Sequence record: MT446387.1 | Direction: 5' to 3' (one strand) | Length of the DNA stretch: 64,000 nucleotides | DNA from: Escherichia phage TH09 | In this document: piece by piece, positions 4,047 through 64,000 of the stretch | Position numbering within the stretch: position 1 is the first letter of the stretch | How the letters are laid out: the number at the start of each line of letters is the position of its first letter | The notes under the pieces: generated by a model | Seen by the model: the letters and a program-made list of their open reading frames with translations, nothing else | Database searches by the model: none | What the model was told of the DNA's origin: nothing | Program-made: the position numbers and the translations under genes

Positions 4047-4934
4047 ATGTCAGTAGTAATTAATAATGTCAATGCAGTAATTAAATCTTTAGTTAATAAA
4101 AAATTGAATGAATGGACTGTACTTCGTCGTGGAGAGCCAGATAAATTTTTTCATAGATTTAACCCAACTTTGGATTTGAATGTTATTGACAGAGATGTTC
4201 ATGCAGAAATTTTAGATAAGTTTAAAGTTGATATTGGATTTGGATTAGAAAAACATTTACAGCGAACAAACGGATCTGGAATGAGTTTATCTAATCGCAT
4301 TATGAAAGCACTTAATAAAATTGGAGCATTGTCTCGTATTAACGCGAGTGAAATCCTTCGCAATTATAATAAAGGATACGACCTTTATGGTCGACTAATG
4401 CCGAAATTATCATTTGACCAAATGATTGCGGATTTGTGGGAAAATCAACGACGATTATTAGCATTAGGCGCTCGATTAGCTAAAGGTCTAGATAAACAAA
4501 TGATTTTTAAGACCAATAATACAGAAGACCTTAAATGCTTTAAATTTAGTATTCGCGGAGATGATTATTACATCAGAGCTCGCTCTACAGATTATGTTAA
4601 TATGGGGCATCATCTCTGTTTAGCTTTTGAAGTTTTAAAAGAAGTCGGAACATTAGAATATTCATCTGGTGCAAAATGTCCAATTGGTTCAAGTTGTATT
4701 TTAATTTATCGCCCGGATGAATCCAGTTCAACTAAATTGCCTACAAAACCTGTACCAGTTCGTAGTAACGAAAAACATTCTGAACAAATTGATTATTTTA
4801 ATAAGCAAATTGAAGAGCTGAATATTTCTATTCAACAGTATGACGATGAAATTTTCAGACTATCTGGATTGAGTAGTAAAGCTAAATCTGAGCGTGAAAA
4901 ATTAATTAAAATTGTTGATTTACTTAAATCTTAA
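4047..4934 (+). CDS. hypothetical protein with C-terminal coiled coil
   Basis: GAGGAAA SD before ATG 4047; C-terminal 45 aa heptad-like. Confidence 0.6.
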   Translation: MSVVINNVNAVIKSLVNKKLNEWTVLRRGEPDKFFHRFNPTLDLNVIDRDVHAEILDKFKVDIGFGLEKHLQRTNGSGMSLSNRIMKALNKIGALSRINASEILRNYNKGYDLYGRLMPKLSFDQMIADLWENQRRLLALGARLAKGLDKQMIFKTNNTEDLKCFKFSIRGDDYYIRARSTDYVNMGHHLCLAFEVLKEVGTLEYSSGAKCPIGSSCILIYRPDESSSTKLPTKPVPVRSNEKHSEQIDYFNKQIEELNISIQQYDDEIFRLSGLSSKAKSEREKLIKIVDLLKS

Positions 4935-4942
4935 GGAACACT

Positions 4943-16823: not shown

Positions 16824-16999
16824 AAGATGAACATCCAGACTTCTGAAATAGATTATAATAAAATTCGTTCCTCTAAAGAGGAAATGATGAGACGCTTTAA
16901 AGAGTCTCATGATAAAGCTAAAGCAGAAGGAACTATAAAATATAAGCGCATAAAATTTAAAAGTTCTAACGAGCCTCTGTATGGCGTATTATGCGGATA

Positions 17000-17013
17000 G
17001 GAGCTTCGGCTCC
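17000..17013 (+). other. UUCG-tetraloop hairpin
   Basis: GGAGC-TTCG-GCTCC; no strong T-run. Confidence 0.4.
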
Positions 17014-17015
17014 TA

Positions 17016-17045
17016 TATTGCTTTATAAATTTTTGGTAAAATAAA
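17016..17045 (+). promoter_or_regulatory. putative MotA-dependent middle promoter for a-gt
   Basis: MotA box TTGCTTTA 17018-17025, TAAAAT 17037-17042 after 11 bp. Confidence 0.4.
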
Positions 17046-17066
17046 CCAAAACAAAGAGGATATTAA

Positions 17067-18269
17067 ATGAAAGTATGTATTTTTATGGCTCGAGGTCTTG
17101 AAGGTTGTGGTGTAACAAAATTCTCACTCGAGCAACGTGATTGGTTTATTAAAAATGGTCATGAAGTAACTTTGGTTTATGCTAAAGATAAATCATTTAC
17201 TCGTAATTGCGCGCATGATTATAAATCATTTTCAATTCCGGTTTTATTGGCAAAAGAATATGATAAAACACTTAAGCTGGTAAATGATTGTGATATTCTA
17301 ATTATCAATTCGGTTCCTGCTACTTCGGTTGAAGAAGACACGATTAATAACTATAAAAAAATTATTGATAACATTAAACCTTCTGTTCGTGTTGTAGTTT
17401 ATCAACATGACCATTCTTCTCTTTCTTTGCGTCGAAATTTGGGATTAGAAGAAACTGTTCGTCGAGCTGATGTTATTTTTAGCCATTCTGATAATGGTGA
17501 TTTTAATAAAGTTCTGATGAAAGAGTGGTATCCTGAAACAGTTTCTCTGTTTGATGATATTGAAGAAGCGCCGACAGTATATAACTTTCAGCCTCCGATG
17601 GATATTGCGAAGGTTCGATCAACCTACTGGAAAGATGTTTCTGAAATTAACATGAATATCAACCGTTGGATTGGTCGTACTACTACATGGAAAGGTTTTT
17701 ATCAGATGTTTGATTTTCATGAAAAACATCTTAAACCTGCAGGACTAAGTACTATTATGGAAGGTCTGGAACGTTCTCCAGCGTTTATTCCTATTAAAGA
17801 AAAAGGAATTCCATACGAGTATTATCGTCTTCATCAAGTAGACCAAATTAAAATTGCTCCTAATTTGCCAACGCAAATTCTTGACCGTTATGTAAATAGC
17901 GAAATGCTTGAACGCATGAGTAAATCCGGTTTTGGTTATCAGTTGAGTAAGTTGGATAAAAAATATCTACAACGTTCTTTAGAATATACTCATCTCGAGC
18001 TTGGTGCATGTGGAACAATTCCGGTATTTTGGAAATCTACTGGCGAAAATTTAAAATTCCGTGTTGATAATAATCCTTTGACCTCGCATGATAGCGGTAT
18101 CATTTGGTTTGATGAAAATGACATGGAATCAACATTTGAACATATTAAAGAACTGTCATCTGACCGAGCTCTTTATGACCGTGAGCGAGAAAAAGCATAT
18201 GAATTTTTGTATCAGCATCAAGATTCAAGCTTCTGCTTTAAAGAACAGTTTGACATTATTACAAAATAA
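17067..18269 (+). CDS. a-gt: DNA alpha-glucosyltransferase
   Basis: 400 aa; recognised as T4 a-gt. Confidence 0.95.
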   Translation: MKVCIFMARGLEGCGVTKFSLEQRDWFIKNGHEVTLVYAKDKSFTRNCAHDYKSFSIPVLLAKEYDKTLKLVNDCDILIINSVPATSVEEDTINNYKKIIDNIKPSVRVVVYQHDHSSLSLRRNLGLEETVRRADVIFSHSDNGDFNKVLMKEWYPETVSLFDDIEEAPTVYNFQPPMDIAKVRSTYWKDVSEINMNINRWIGRTTTWKGFYQMFDFHEKHLKPAGLSTIMEGLERSPAFIPIKEKGIPYEYYRLHQVDQIKIAPNLPTQILDRYVNSEMLERMSKSGFGYQLSKLDKKYLQRSLEYTHLELGACGTIPVFWKSTGENLKFRVDNNPLTSHDSGIIWFDENDMESTFEHIKELSSDRALYDREREKAYEFLYQHQDSSFCFKEQFDIITK

Positions 18270-35547: not shown

Positions 35548-36576
35548 ATGTCATCAATACCTTGGATTGATAATGAGTTTGCATACCGTGCATTAGCTCA
35601 TTTACCTAAATTCACACAAGTAAATAATAGTTCAACTTTTAAATTACGGTTTAGATGTCCTGTTTGTGGAGATTCAAAAACCGACCAGAATAAAGCTCGT
35701 GGATGGTATTATGGTGATAATAATGAAGGAAATATTCATTGTTATAACTGTAACTATCATGCACCAATCGGAATATATTTAAAGGAGTTTGAACCTGATT
35801 TATATCGTGAGTATATCTTTGAAATAAGAAAAGAAAAAGGTAAAAGTCGTCCAGTAGAAAAACCTAAAGAACTTCCTAAACAACCCGAAAAGAAAATAAT
35901 TAAATCTCTTCCGTCATGTGTTAGATTAGATAAACTGGCGGAAGACCATCCAATTATAAAATATGTAAAAGCTCGTTGTATTCCAAAGGATAAATGGAAA
36001 TATCTTTGGTTTACAACTGAATGGCCTAAATTAGTTAATAGCATAGCACCAGGAACATACAAAAAGGAAATTTCTGAGCCTCGTCTTGTTATTCCAATTT
36101 ATAATGCTAATGGAAAAGCTGAGTCTTTTCAAGGACGTGCATTAAAGAAAGATGCTCCTCAAAAATATATCACCATTAAAGCTTATCCTGAGGCAACAAA
36201 AATTTACGGTGTTGAACGAGTTAAAGATGGTGATGTATATGTTCTAGAAGGACCTATAGATTCACTTTTTATTGAAAATGGTATAGCTATTACGGGTGGT
36301 CAATTAGACCTAGAAGTTGTTCCATTTAAAGATAGACGAGTGTGGGTTTTAGATAATGAACCTCGTCACCCTGACACTATCAAACGAATGACTAAATTAG
36401 TTGATGCAGGAGAAAGGGTTATGTTTTGGGATAAATCTCCCTGGAAATCAAAAGATGTCAATGATATGATTAGAAAGGAAGGTGCAACCCCTGAACAAAT
36501 TATGAAATATATGAAAAATAATATTGCCCAGGGGTTGATGGCTAAAATGCGGCTATCTAAATATGCTAAGATTTAA
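35548..36576 (+). CDS. 61: DNA primase gp61
   Basis: 342 aa; zinc ribbon CPVCGDS...CYNC; recognised as T4 gp61. Confidence 0.95.
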   Translation: MSSIPWIDNEFAYRALAHLPKFTQVNNSSTFKLRFRCPVCGDSKTDQNKARGWYYGDNNEGNIHCYNCNYHAPIGIYLKEFEPDLYREYIFEIRKEKGKSRPVEKPKELPKQPEKKIIKSLPSCVRLDKLAEDHPIIKYVKARCIPKDKWKYLWFTTEWPKLVNSIAPGTYKKEISEPRLVIPIYNANGKAESFQGRALKKDAPQKYITIKAYPEATKIYGVERVKDGDVYVLEGPIDSLFIENGIAITGGQLDLEVVPFKDRRVWVLDNEPRHPDTIKRMTKLVDAGERVMFWDKSPWKSKDVNDMIRKEGATPEQIMKYMKNNIAQGLMAKMRLSKYAKI

Positions 36577-36773
36577 ATTAACCCAACTAAAGCAAATGCT
36601 AAATCTACGAATGTATCAAGAGTAACTACTGGAATATTAATACCATGTGCAATTGCAACAGGTGATAAAATAAAGTTCCAGAGTAAAATTCCTACCATAG
36701 CAGAAATAGTAAAAGCTATACGTTTTTTATTACCTTTTATGGCATTAACAAGTGCCATTAATTTTTGTACCAT
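36573..36773 (-). CDS. small membrane protein, antisense to surrounding operons
   Basis: 66 aa hydrophobic; GGAGGA SD 4 nt before the ATG on the - strand. Confidence 0.5.
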   Translation of the reverse strand: MVQKLMALVNAIKGNKKRIAFTISAMVGILLWNFILSPVAIAHGINIPVVTLDTFVDLAFALVGLI

Positions 36774-36783
36774 GTGTCCTCCT

Positions 36784-36812
36784 TATTGCTTTATATATTT
36801 ATTGTATAATTA
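36784..36812 (+). promoter_or_regulatory. putative MotA-dependent middle promoter for gene 56
   Basis: MotA box TTGCTTTA 36786-36793, TATAAT 36805-36810. Confidence 0.4.
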
Positions 36813-36844
36813 ATCTACTAACCCATGAATTGAAAGGAAAAATA

Positions 36845-37363
36845 ATGGCTTACTTTAATGAATGTTCACAACTGATCGAAGGCGCTGATAAAGCTCAAAA
36901 TGAATACTGGGATATTCTCGGTGATGAAAAAGACCCGCTGCAGGTTATGCTTGATATGCAGAAATCTCTGCAGGTTCGTTTAGCTAAAGATAAACCTGAA
37001 TATAACCGTCATCCTGATGATTTGGCTACTGCAGGTGAAGTTGTTGATTGGCTGCGCAATCAGAAAGATTATATTGATGATGAATTCCGCGAACTTCTGA
37101 CTTCTCTTGGTGGTATGAGCAATGGTGAAAAAGATGCATCTGCTGTATGGAAGCCATGGAAAGCTCAACATGGTGAACGTCGTGAAACTCTGATTACTGA
37201 TTTGTCTCCACAAGACCAGTTGGAAATTAAATTCGAAATGATTGATATTCTTCATTTCGTTCTGAACATGTTCCAAGGTCTCGGTCTTACGGCTGAAGAA
37301 ATCTTTAAACTTTATTATCTGAAAAATGCTGAAAACTTCGCTCGCCAAGACCGAGGTTACTAA
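36845..37363 (+). CDS. 56: dCTPase/dUTPase gp56
   Basis: 172 aa from ATG 36845 (GAAAGGAAAA SD); recognised as T4 gp56. Confidence 0.9.
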   Translation: MAYFNECSQLIEGADKAQNEYWDILGDEKDPLQVMLDMQKSLQVRLAKDKPEYNRHPDDLATAGEVVDWLRNQKDYIDDEFRELLTSLGGMSNGEKDASAVWKPWKAQHGERRETLITDLSPQDQLEIKFEMIDILHFVLNMFQGLGLTAEEIFKLYYLKNAENFARQDRGY

Positions 37364-37563
37364 TGGCTCGTTTAAATAAACGACAGCTTAAGAAAGCCCA
37401 CAAGAAACATATTGACCAGCTATTTAAAAATTATGACAAGGAGCTCGTATGTGAGCTCTTATCTAATCAGCTTCGTGTGGTTGATTGGGTTGTAGAAGAA
37501 GGTCCTGATGAAATTTTTGTCAGTGAAGAAGCTTTAAAATTAATTATAGAGCATTCAAAATGA
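37363..37563 (+). CDS. hypothetical protein
   Basis: 66 aa. Confidence 0.45.
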   Translation: MARLNKRQLKKAHKKHIDQLFKNYDKELVCELLSNQLRVVDWVVEEGPDEIFVSEEALKLIIEHSK

Positions 37564-37733
37564 AAATATCCAAAGAAGAATTTATTAGACGACAAAAAGC
37601 TTTAATTAATTTACACGAGTGGTATGCTTATCAGCTTAAAGTAGATAGCTCTAATATAAATGCTGTAATGGCTTTATATAAACAAATTCATGATGAACAC
37701 GAATTCCTAGCACAAGTTTTCATTGAAGACTGA
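37560..37733 (+). CDS. small hypothetical protein
   Basis: 57-codon ORF; ATGA overlap. Confidence 0.3.
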   Translation: MKISKEEFIRRQKALINLHEWYAYQLKVDSSNINAVMALYKQIHDEHEFLAQVFIED

Positions 37734-37741
37734 TATAAATA
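37734..37741 (+). promoter_or_regulatory. late promoter for soc
   Basis: Exact TATAAATA about 30 bp upstream of soc. Confidence 0.5.
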
Positions 37742-37772
37742 CACCTGTAATTAAACAATAAAGGAGTTTATT

Positions 37773-38009
37773 ATGGGTGGTTTCGTTAACATCAAGACCT
37801 TTACTCATCCAGCGGGTGAAGGCAAAGAAGTTAAAGGTATGGAAGTTTCTGTAGCATTTGATGTATATTCAAATGAACACCGTATCGCAGATTCTCATTA
37901 TCAAATCTTTCCGTCAGAAAAAGCAGCTTATTCTGATGTAGTTTCCGATGCAGCAACTTGGAAAACTAAGAATGCTGCAATGTTTACGCCTACAGAAATA
38001 GGTGGTTAA
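37773..38009 (+). CDS. soc: small outer capsid protein Soc
   Basis: 78 aa; recognised as T4 Soc-like. Confidence 0.85.
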   Translation: MGGFVNIKTFTHPAGEGKEVKGMEVSVAFDVYSNEHRIADSHYQIFPSEKAAYSDVVSDAATWKTKNAAMFTPTEIGG

Positions 38010-48568: not shown

Positions 48569-48940
48569 ATGTTTAAAATCGGTAAGAAATATCGTATTCG
48601 CGAAGGCGAAGAAAAGAAATATCTAATGTCTGCTATTTATAGGAATGGTTCTATTAATGCTGTAATATCTACAAGCGAATTTATCGTTGAAGATATGAAA
48701 GGTCATAATGTTACAATGATTAGTACAGCATCTGGAAATGATGGAAAAATTCTTCACAGCTTTCAGAGTAATGTTCTAATTTATGATGAAGAATTTGACT
48801 TCTTCGAAGAAGTTACAGAAGATTTTGATTTTGGATGCACCATCACTATGAAATCTGGTGACCCTCTTTCTTTTACAGTTAAAGATGAAAGAAGTCGCTT
48901 GAGAATTATTAGTCTTCTTCAAGCCATTAAATTTGAGTGA
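48569..48940 (+). CDS. hypothetical protein
   Basis: 123 aa from ATG 48569. Confidence 0.5.
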   Translation: MFKIGKKYRIREGEEKKYLMSAIYRNGSINAVISTSEFIVEDMKGHNVTMISTASGNDGKILHSFQSNVLIYDEEFDFFEEVTEDFDFGCTITMKSGDPLSFTVKDERSRLRIISLLQAIKFE

Positions 48941-62370: not shown

Positions 62371-63027
62371 TTATTTAGCCCTTCCTAATATTCTGGCCGC
62401 CTGAGCACATATTGATTCAAGGCGGTCATTACTTATATGATCATTTCTATACCAGTACATGGTTATCGTTCCAGCATAGATATTATCCAAATTAAAATAT
62501 GGACAACTGTACATGTAGTTTATTTCGGGAGTAGGCTTTTTAGTTGGTAAAAAAGCAAATTTTGAGTCAGAATAATAATGACGTCCATTTAAATGAACTG
62601 TATATTCATCCATAGTTTTATCAACAGGATATCCTCCAAGTGATTTTTCAGTTATTGTTGAAGGTAATCTTCCTTCGTATGCTATAATATCAACAAAATA
62701 GTTTAAGTTTTTAGGGCGGAAAGAATACACCGCACTAAAGTCTGCCTCAGATGATATATGAACTATCTGGAGTTGTTCCAGGGCGACAGATTCAAAGCGT
62801 GCATTTCTTTCCTTTTCAATAATTTCACTGTATGTTTCATACTTTGATTGCTTATAGTACTCAAAGAAACTATCTCCCCTATACCAAACAATCGCCATCA
62901 TAAATAAAAGAATTACGACAGCTACCCGGGAAGCAAGAACTTTCCCGGTAGCGTTATCTTTGAACAAGCGATCTAGAACACCAAATAGAATATCAGAGGG
63001 CGAAAATGATATTCTAGGTGCTGCCAT
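62371..63027 (-). CDS. t: holin T
   Basis: 218 aa; recognised as T4 holin; stop abuts the asiA stop. Confidence 0.95.
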   Translation of the reverse strand: MAAPRISFSPSDILFGVLDRLFKDNATGKVLASRVAVVILLFMMAIVWYRGDSFFEYYKQSKYETYSEIIEKERNARFESVALEQLQIVHISSEADFSAVYSFRPKNLNYFVDIIAYEGRLPSTITEKSLGGYPVDKTMDEYTVHLNGRHYYSDSKFAFLPTKKPTPEINYMYSCPYFNLDNIYAGTITMYWYRNDHISNDRLESICAQAARILGRAK

Positions 63028-63044
63028 AGACCCTCCTTTTAAGA

Positions 63045-63052
63045 TATTTATA
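63045..63052 (-). promoter_or_regulatory. late promoter for t
   Basis: TATAAATA on the - strand overlapping the gene 38 stop, followed by GGAGG and the t start. Confidence 0.5.
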
Positions 63053-63599
63053 CGTAATGCTTGAATAAACGCTTATACCAAGGCTTCTGTTCTTTTTCAG
63101 GCCATTTAGGAAATTCACCACCTAAATGCTCATGCTTTTCTAAAAGAGCAAAGAACCGCTTAAGGTTTTTATAATAGAATTTTTCCTTTTTATTCGCGAC
63201 AGAAGCTTCAATCATATTATTTAAAACTTGGAATTCTTTGTATAATTCTTCAATTTTTCTATTGCGAATTAAAACGCGTTTATATGTTTCGTCTTCTTTC
63301 CAACCATCATCAGTCCATATATCAAATTCGCCGGGTTCATCAAAAGTTATACCAACCGGGCTTCCTATGTCAGTTATTAAGATTTCTTCTTTATTAAAAG
63401 TCCAAGCCCGTTTACCGCGATGGTCTTCTTCATAAATCCAATCCTGAATACGTTCATCAAATACAACTGCGTATCCTTCTTTAGGTTCTAAAGGTTTTTT
63501 AATTGTTGAATGAGCAGGAAGACCGAGACCTTTAACAGGTTTGTAATTTTCTTCTTTGTAAAATTCTTTAGTGTCAAAATAATAATGATAGATTTTCAT
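63048..63599 (-). CDS. 38: gp38, T4-type 183-aa tail fibre assembly protein
   Basis: 183 aa; recognised as T4 gp38. Confidence 0.9.
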   Translation of the reverse strand: MKIYHYYFDTKEFYKEENYKPVKGLGLPAHSTIKKPLEPKEGYAVVFDERIQDWIYEEDHRGKRAWTFNKEEILITDIGSPVGITFDEPGEFDIWTDDGWKEDETYKRVLIRNRKIEELYKEFQVLNNMIEASVANKKEKFYYKNLKRFFALLEKHEHLGGEFPKWPEKEQKPWYKRLFKHYV

Positions 63600-63630
63600 A
63601 TTTAGAAGGGGCCGAAGCCCCTCTCCTTAT
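63600..63630 (-). promoter_or_regulatory. gene 38 split ribosome-binding site hairpin
   Basis: On the - strand AAGGAGAG, then GGGGC-UUCG-GCCCC hairpin, then the ATG; matches the known T4 gene 38 split SD. Confidence 0.5.
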
Positions 63631-64000
63631 GCTAAACGAACAATATAGTTAAAAGCAATGTTTTTAACCGTGTTTTCTGTATTACCTGTACTATTTACAG
63701 TGATAGTATGACCATGCGAGCCAATTGCTACCGTGTGGGTATGAGCACCGATACCTACAGTATGGGTATGAGCACCAATACCAACAGTATGCGCGTGAGC
63801 GCCTGCGCTTGCAGCAGTACCAGATATAGAGTGCGAATGTGCCCCAGAAGAAGAAGTTCCAAGCGTATTACCACCACCGGCGGATCCTCTTATAGAACCA
63901 GTACCAGGAGAGTTGTTACTTCCCGCATAAAGAGCGCTTGTGTGGCTGTGCGCACCGGCGGTGTTTGTGGAACCGCTCAAACTATGCGTATGAGCACCAG
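63627..64000 (-). CDS. 37: long tail fibre distal subunit gp37, C-terminal part (continues beyond window)
   Basis: C-terminus ...[11 protein letters not shown] with His-rich [16 protein letters not shown] repeats; ORF open to the window end. Confidence 0.9.

Follow-up and report, generated by a model that had tools for sequence, protein, structure and literature searches.

Phages T2 and T4 are reported to induce a DNA adenine methylase on infection, and T6 is not. The T4 enzyme is encoded by dam (T4 16846-17625), which together with the early promoter P(E)17.40 makes up a cassette of ~0.9 kb between gene 61 and gene 56. The T2 cassette is longer (~1.45 kb) and consists of an extra 182-aa gene followed by dam, both after a small ORF, dam.1. 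The cassette sits between the 5' end of dam.1 and the MotA-dependent middle promoter of gene 56 in both phages. T6 has a dam-less junction, and the T6 record labels the ORF located there 'dam.1'.

The DNA described here is a 64-kb stretch of the Escherichia phage TH09 genome (MT446387.1), referred to as the window. It covers the early region of a Tequatrovirus, a T4-like phage, and its + strand corresponds to the T4 minus strand. Genes 61 and 56 are separated by only 268 bp (36577-36844), and the locus contains the following features:

35548-36576, + strand: gene 61, DNA primase, 342 aa (from the ORF listing; PHROG 47, E 3.5e-106; 99% identity to T4 gp61)
36573-36773, - strand: dam.1 (RB69ORF029w family, PHROG 2024, E 1.4e-31), 66 aa, predicted two-helix inner-membrane hairpin
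36784-36804, no strand: position equivalent to that of the T4 and T2 dam cassettes, with no insert in the window (junction alignment of the window, T6, AR1, T4 and T2)
36845-37363, + strand: gene 56, dCTPase/dUTPase, 172 aa, AR1/RB32-type allele (PHROG 173, E 1.1e-46)
37773-38009: soc

The gene 56 product is 99-100% identical to its counterparts in AR1, L016 and L018 and only 71-74% identical to gp56 of T4, T6 and T2. The dam.1 frame is convergent with gene 61, and the stop codons of the two genes overlap by 3-4 nt. An Rfam scan of the 61-56 gap returned no RNA family, and the overall fold of the gap is not unusual (z = -0.8). The interval between gene 56 and soc (37364-37772) is taken up by two small + strand ORFs that belong to PHROG 5782 and PHROG 9053.

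The initial annotation of this DNA, made from the sequence alone, had given the 61-56 interval as ~270 bp and had placed in it a 66-aa membrane-type ORF on the opposite strand with a Shine-Dalgarno sequence, together with a MotA promoter for gene 56. Our analysis bears out each of these points, as well as the statement that the 56-soc gap holds no Dam. The ORF was also described as the only minus-strand gene in over 60 kb. This is correct from position 1 to ~62,370 and fails beyond it: from 62,371 onward, up to the window end, the minus strand also carries three late genes, t, 38 and 37, the last with its 3' end only. The dam.1 orthologue in the closest annotated genome is the sole opposite-strand gene across ~75 kb.

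dam.1 is a conserved gene independent of dam

The dam.1 product matches PHROG 2024 over its full length, with residues 2-66 aligned to profile positions 1-65 of 65. RB69ORF029w of RB69 (Mosigvirus), AR1_033 of AR1 and the members of PHROG 2024 are the same gene as dam.1 of the window. The gene is present in 696 phage records, 502 of which carry it at >=90% identity, and many Tequatrovirus orthologues are 97-100% identical to the window protein. The T6 protein (MH550421, AXN58073.1) is 98% identical, and its gene shares position, orientation and junction with the window; ATT replaces the first ATG in T6, and the record begins at Met6 to give a product of 61 aa.

T4 contains the same ORF at T4 17738-17938 on the + strand, within the 309-bp space between gene 61 and dam. 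Its 66-aa product is 97% identical to that of the window and differs from it at 2 aa, and the ORF is unannotated in both NC_000866 and KJ477684. The T4 RefSeq record misses a conserved and selected gene at this position, and T4 screens built on that annotation would miss dam.1 as well. Our search of the published literature for dam.1 or RB69ORF029w, for small unannotated T4 proteins and for a T6 methylase returned nothing specific.

The position of dam.1 on the strand opposite its neighbours, convergent with gene 61 and upstream of gene 56, is common to the window, T4, T6, T2, AR1 and the other lineages examined. Genes 56 and 61 flank an oppositely oriented dam.1, with no dam between them, in Mosigvirus, Gaprivervirus, Kanagawavirus, Gelderlandvirus and metagenomic T-even contigs. 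The orthologue in Gaprivervirus has no overlap with gene 61. Among 1.84 billion proteins, a profile search recovered further relatives of 57-70 aa with 25-30% identity; two of these were examined in their context, in T-even-type contigs, and both are convergent with the primase gene.

The family core can be written as W-N-(F/Y)-x3-P ... G ... (L)P ... L(D/E), represented in the window protein by W32, N33, F34, P38, G44, P48 and L52. In an alignment of 19 sequences, P38 never varies, and W32 and N33 hardly do. Within three genera the dN/dS ratio of dam.1 is ~0.1-0.3, and substitutions fall mostly at third codon positions. We conclude that dam.1 is a genuine conserved gene under purifying selection, and it is independent of dam because T4 and T2 carry both. 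The selection and the conservation across genera lead us to reject the reading of dam.1 as a spurious ORF. The initial annotation had the ORF occupying the gap left by dam, which does not hold, since T4 and T2 have the same ORF in addition to dam; the presence of the two genes side by side also rules out dam.1 as a replacement for dam.

Overlapping predicted promoters between dam.1 and gene 56

The region between the dam.1 start codon and gene 56 contains signals for both strands, and a terminator-like element lies within dam.1 itself:

36739-36768, + strand: intrinsic-terminator-like hairpin and T-run for gene 61 transcripts, inside the 5' coding part of dam.1
36778-36783, - strand: Shine-Dalgarno sequence AGGAGG of dam.1, 4 nt before the ATG
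36784-36810, + strand: MotA middle promoter of gene 56, with MotA box TATTGCTTTA at 36784-36793, an 11-nt spacer and TATAAT at 36805-36810, aligned with T4 P(M)16.53
36796-36803, - strand: predicted T4-type late promoter element AATAAATA of dam.1, 22 nt upstream of the ATG

MotA promoters carry a box of the form (a/t)(a/t)(a/t)TGCTT(t/c)A ~12 bp upstream of a sigma-70 -10 element, an arrangement found here as TATTGCTTTA, 11 nt and TATAAT. The promoter is the homologue of T4 P(M)16.53, which serves gene 56 and as the primer promoter of oriA (X01416, NC_000866). It aligns with the T4 and T2 promoter located downstream of dam and is also annotated in phage SA20RB.

On the opposite strand, every dam.1 orthologue examined has a purine-rich ribosome-binding site (AGGAG or GGAGG) ahead of its ATG. 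Further upstream, AATAAATA has the form expected of a T4 late promoter, in which an element of the TATAAATA type precedes the start site by roughly one helical turn and no -35 element is present. Among T4 late promoters, 32 of 50 sites carry a perfect TATAAATA, and nine of the 50 carry A at -13, the variant present in the window (PMC2988020). The sequence NATAAATA is found 14-22 nt upstream of the dam.1 ATG in 14 diverse loci, even where the flanking DNA cannot be aligned. The ATAAATA heptamer is conserved in all 14, and the base at -13 varies (A, G, C or T). Salmonella phage S16 is the exception, with the variant ATTAAATA at the position of the dam.1 late promoter.

The late motif is rare in the window, where it occurs 10 times on both strands of the 64 kb, six of them on the dam.1 strand. 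As a calibration within the same DNA, it stands 31 nt before soc, a known late gene, and 17 nt before the holin gene t (62371-63027), whose late-promoter geometry is the same as that of dam.1. We infer that dam.1 is a late gene with a gp55-type promoter, because the motif lies upstream of it and is conserved across lineages.

The spacer that separates the MotA box of gene 56 from its TATAAT contains, on the opposite strand, the predicted late element of dam.1, and the two promoters overlap back-to-back. Because the late promoter is placed in this way, partly inside the MotA promoter, transcription from the shared ~30-bp region would head rightward in the middle period and leftward in the late period, a switch suggested by the sequence and its conservation.

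A terminator scan identified three candidates in the region compared with 0.7 expected from shuffles. The hairpin at 36739-36768 is annotated as a terminator in SA20RB and is identical in T4, T6 and T2. For the minus strand after dam.1, the scan yielded only a weak, imperfect hairpin; others have annotated a terminator at this point in SA20RB.

The predicted dam.1 hairpin and its possible role

The AlphaFold2 model of dam.1 (pLDDT 77) contains a short basic helix (residues 2-12), a long hydrophobic helix (16-42) and a second hydrophobic helix (52-63). The hydropathy profile fits a hairpin of two helices with the basic N-terminus on the cytoplasmic side, and dam.1 is accordingly predicted to be a helical hairpin of the inner membrane. 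Neither Pfam nor NCBIfam gave a match to the window protein or to six orthologues, and NCBIfam scans of distant family members produced only scattered hydrophobic noise. A Foldseek search with the model retrieved nothing from the PDB and only members of the same family from BFVD.

The one relationship that emerges from sequence comparison is with holins of the PF11351 class (GTA_holin_3TM). The window protein itself has no match to PF11351 even at E values up to 10. Three distant dam.1 members match PF11351 weakly over positions ~66-117 with E values of 0.03-0.1, as does a cyanophage 'GTA-like holin' that was detected along with one of them; the distant members reach 13.6-15.3 bits, where the gathering threshold is 24.8 bits. 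One distant member also matches PHROG 3427 (holin) with an E value of 5e-4.

For a profile comparison we assembled four holins scoring above the PF11351 threshold (best E 2.6e-25); three of the four adjoin annotated endolysins. HHalign pairs residues 17-66 of the dam.1 family with the TM2-TM3 part of this set, with a probability of 84% and a score of 34.9. As controls, 100 column shuffles of the hydrophobic half score 10.6 +/- 2.4, with a maximum of 20.6, and reversed alignments score 11-13, which places the family score ~10 sd above the shuffles. The probability is 77% for a profile of the close family alone and 56% for the window protein alone.

The two groups share a W-x-F-L-L-x-P motif, an LP..L segment and a GLG end. 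Compared with the PF11351 holins, dam.1 has half the length and is without the N-terminal TM/coiled region and the charged C-terminal tail. A remote homology of dam.1 to the two-TM core (TM2-TM3) of 3TM holins is likely on this evidence, though not established. The link falls below every curated threshold, and we treat it as a lead only.

Other holin traits differ as well. The charged or hydrophilic C-terminal tail typical of holins is absent, and dam.1 instead ends with the hydrophobic sequence ...ALVGLI. Its neighbours are the primase and dCTPase genes, with no linkage to an endolysin. Lysis cassettes were considered as a location for the distant homologues and rejected; in temperate phages these homologues are found in accessory regions beyond the tail genes.

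Class II two-TMD holins and pinholins, such as S21 of phage 21, resemble dam.1 in their length of 60-70 aa, in the predicted hairpin and in having both ends in the cytoplasm. They differ in that the basic region of dam.1 is N-terminal rather than C-terminal, and dam.1 has no dual-start motif. The T4 holin T and the antiholins RI and RIII are membrane proteins of the same phages, with T expressed late, and are unrelated to dam.1 in sequence and architecture; T has 218 aa and a large periplasmic domain, unlike dam.1. Mutants of T4 in t are not known to lyse, and for this reason dam.1 cannot be the main or a sufficient holin of the T-even phages.

We tentatively propose that the dam.1 product oligomerizes in the inner membrane late in infection and there modulates membrane integrity or the timing of lysis alongside holin T, in a role other than that of primary holin. 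A more specific form of the proposal is rather doubtful: that dam.1 has been overlooked as a late gene of nearly all T-even phages and encodes a truncated relative of the 3TM holins that takes part with T in lysis timing, lysis inhibition or late permeabilization. As an apparently late and predicted holin-related protein, dam.1 offers a testable entry into an unexamined component of the T-even envelope or lysis. The elements that go beyond database annotation, namely the gap in the T4 annotation, the conserved late-promoter motif and the probable kinship with 3TM holins, are leads rather than findings.

The alternative that survives best, although we think it unlikely, is that dam.1 acts at the envelope as an exclusion or defence factor instead of in lysis, either by interfering with the entry of DNA from superinfecting phages or in an accessory 'moron' function. 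T4 does use small membrane or periplasmic proteins, Imm and Sp, for exclusion. This alternative keeps its weight because temperate siphophages and prophages carry distant dam.1 homologues in the accessory regions that follow their tail genes, and one of these homologues is located immediately upstream of a RelA_SpoT-domain gene. Another distant member is found at the end of an E. coli prophage beside alkA/yegD. T4 exclusion, however, is set up within minutes by early genes, whereas the dam.1 promoter is of late type, and holins are the only detectable sequence relationship of dam.1.

Less probable still is that selection acts on late antisense transcription itself, which would silence gene 61 or occlude the gene 56/oriA promoter, the peptide being secondary. 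The geometry described above would suit such a function, given the overlap of the late promoter with the MotA promoter, the convergence of dam.1 with gene 61 across its stop codon and the lack of a convincing minus-strand terminator after dam.1. Both strands of T4 are moreover transcribed at different times at several sites (PMC2988020). Against it, the low dN/dS, the conserved length and the W-N-F...P...G residues that are invariant across lineages of 25-55% identity argue that the protein is selected. T4 also keeps dam.1 although dam separates the two promoters there, and the Gaprivervirus gene is conserved clear of gene 61. Modulation of the membrane or of lysis timing by the dam.1 protein remains our preferred, if tentative, reading.

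dam as an optional cassette

A tblastn search of the window with T4 Dam detected no homologue (best E 0.65). We also built a profile HMM from six T4-like Dams, those of T4, T2, RB43, a Krischvirus, a Klebsiella phage and the nrdA-nrdB variant. The T4 control scores 9e-140 with this profile, and six-frame translations of the window and of the whole JLBYU22 genome gave nothing, with a best E of 0.3. These searches confirm that dam is missing from its T4 position between genes 61 and 56, as first noted from the sequence, and lead us to reject a relocation of dam within the window. No sequence in the window can be assigned to the Dam family (N6-adenine methyltransferases of the T4 Dam type), which is marked by SAM-binding and DPPY catalytic motifs.

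The initial annotation had named a dam homologue elsewhere in the genome as the observation that would overturn its reading. JLBYU22 is the closest complete genome, with 98.7% identity over 24 kb, and shows none: T4 Dam gives best tblastn E values of 0.4-1, and the annotation of the genome lists no methyltransferase. TH09 very probably carries no Dam at all, a statement that for the DNA beyond the window is based on its relatives.

A Dam-like gene is present in only some Tequatroviruses (PMC13390438). A different Dam-like gene lies between nrdA and nrdB in ~9 Tequatrovirus records, a region beyond the window, and this is the basis for supposing that TH09 encodes a Dam-family methylase outside the 64 kb. 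We consider this very improbable, as the nrdA-nrdB gene is rare, none of the 10 carriers of a relative is among the closest relatives of the window, and JLBYU22 has no Dam of any kind.

The dam-less arrangement had been presented as unusual, and this part of the initial description has to be revised. The T6 junction is the same as that of the window almost base for base, and AR1 has it too. A 601-bp query across the gap finds matches in 556 phage records and is contiguous in 322 of them, so that the uninterrupted 61-dam.1-56 order is common to at least 322 records. T4-type Dam at >=90% identity is found in ~182 records. About 320 of ~500 Tequatrovirus records (~2/3) are without dam, making this the majority state of the genus, and it is the only state in all five of the other lineages examined, listed above. 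The junction is already known, as the classical T6 arrangement and from hundreds of deposited genomes. With good confidence, the window can be described as a Tequatrovirus with the T6-type, majority, dam-less allele of a known polymorphic site, in which the dam cassette is absent and dam.1 is probably a late gene.

Homologues of Dam are located at other loci as well, beside nrdC/49 in RB43 and a Krischvirus and near denB/ndd in a Klebsiella phage. The pattern of presence and absence across records identifies dam as an optional accessory cassette, since a majority of Tequatroviruses and all other lineages examined are without it and its homologues occur elsewhere in the genome. At the position that dam occupies in T4, the metagenomic contig L029 carries three small, unrelated genes. 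The pattern is most simply explained if dam is a mobile accessory cassette, the site an insertion hotspot and the dam-less state ancestral. The cassette would then have inserted, in ~1/3 of Tequatrovirus genomes, between the start of dam.1 and the middle promoter of gene 56. Gain in T4 and T2 rather than loss elsewhere is suggested by the outgroup distribution; the junction sequences do not decide the direction.

The T4 dam cassette lies between short AATTAAT repeats, and the dam-less junction differs from the exact product of recombination between them. Such repeats could mediate loss, yet a recent deletion of dam in TH09 that left dam.1 as a chance frame in the scar is hardly credible and is already contradicted by the identical junction in T6, AR1 and >300 records, by the presence of dam.1 with or without dam and in other genera, and by the purifying selection on it.

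The dam-less state itself matters little, dam being a dispensable and patchily distributed accessory gene of T4-like phages. With no Dam of its own, the phage would have its GATC sites methylated by the host enzyme alone.

dam.1 in the T-even reference genomes

The dam.1 ORF, whose predicted product is holin-like, is unannotated in the T4 reference genome NC_000866 (17738–17938, + strand; 4739–4939 of the extracted T4 locus L002) and in the T4 record KJ477684. The T4 ORF is nevertheless present and 97% identical to dam.1 of the window, and hundreds of relatives annotate the gene. For T6 (locus L030, 1732–1932), the first ATG is replaced by ATT, so that the T6 record begins dam.1 at the second methionine and gives a product of 61 aa. 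As judged from the sequence, T6 would either use a rare start codon or make a shortened protein. T2 dam.1 is annotated as a ‘putative head morphogenesis protein’, and an additional 182-aa gene in the T2 dam/dam.1 interval (locus L031, 1496–2041) is annotated as a ‘head outer capsid protein’. The two labels were apparently carried over in error by annotation transfer.

Distant members of the dam.1 family occur in temperate phages and prophages, 3′ of tail genes (L039, 129–1383; L032–L035; L040). One is followed, 17 nt downstream, by a 352-aa gene encoding a RelA_SpoT domain, and another is positioned at the end of an E. coli prophage, adjoining yegD/alkA. The metagenome protein P0079 is a copy of dam.1 with T in place of every C, which gives the changes A>V, R>C, T>I, S>F, P>L and H>Y. 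This substitution pattern is evidently not that of a natural variant and points to an assembly of bisulfite- or deaminase-converted T-even phage reads, possibly from a spike-in control.

GATC content and an alternative Dam-like gene

GATC is strongly depleted in the window, with 71 sites observed against ~201 expected. The observed/expected ratio in the Dam-less genome of JLBYU22, the closest complete relative (L005–L008), is 0.37, the lowest among all 4-bp palindromes. In a few Tequatroviruses, namely T4_ev240 (L004, 2492–3283) and eight other records, the nrdA–nrdB interval encodes another Dam-like methyltransferase, which shares 33% identity with T4 Dam.

Late-promoter motifs

Late genes and late-promoter motifs elsewhere in the window include the following.

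62371–64000, minus strand: late genes t (a 218-aa holin) and 38 (183 aa), together with the 3′ portion of 37, at the 3′ end of the window
17 nt before the t ATG, minus strand: perfect TATAAATA
48634–48641, minus strand: perfect TATAAATA, inside a + strand early gene

The motif at 48634–48641 may act as an antisense late promoter. Closely downstream of it there is no ORF on the minus strand that has a ribosome-binding site.

Gene 56 alleles and segF

Two divergent gp56 alleles share 71–74% amino-acid identity, whereas gp61 of the same phages is 98–99% identical (window compared with T4, T6, T2, L017 and L019). Gene 56 of the window (36845–37363) is the AR1/RB32-type allele. In T4, segF follows gene 56, whereas the window lacks segF and has two small ORFs (37363–37733) in its place. 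SegF-driven marker exclusion may lie behind this pattern.
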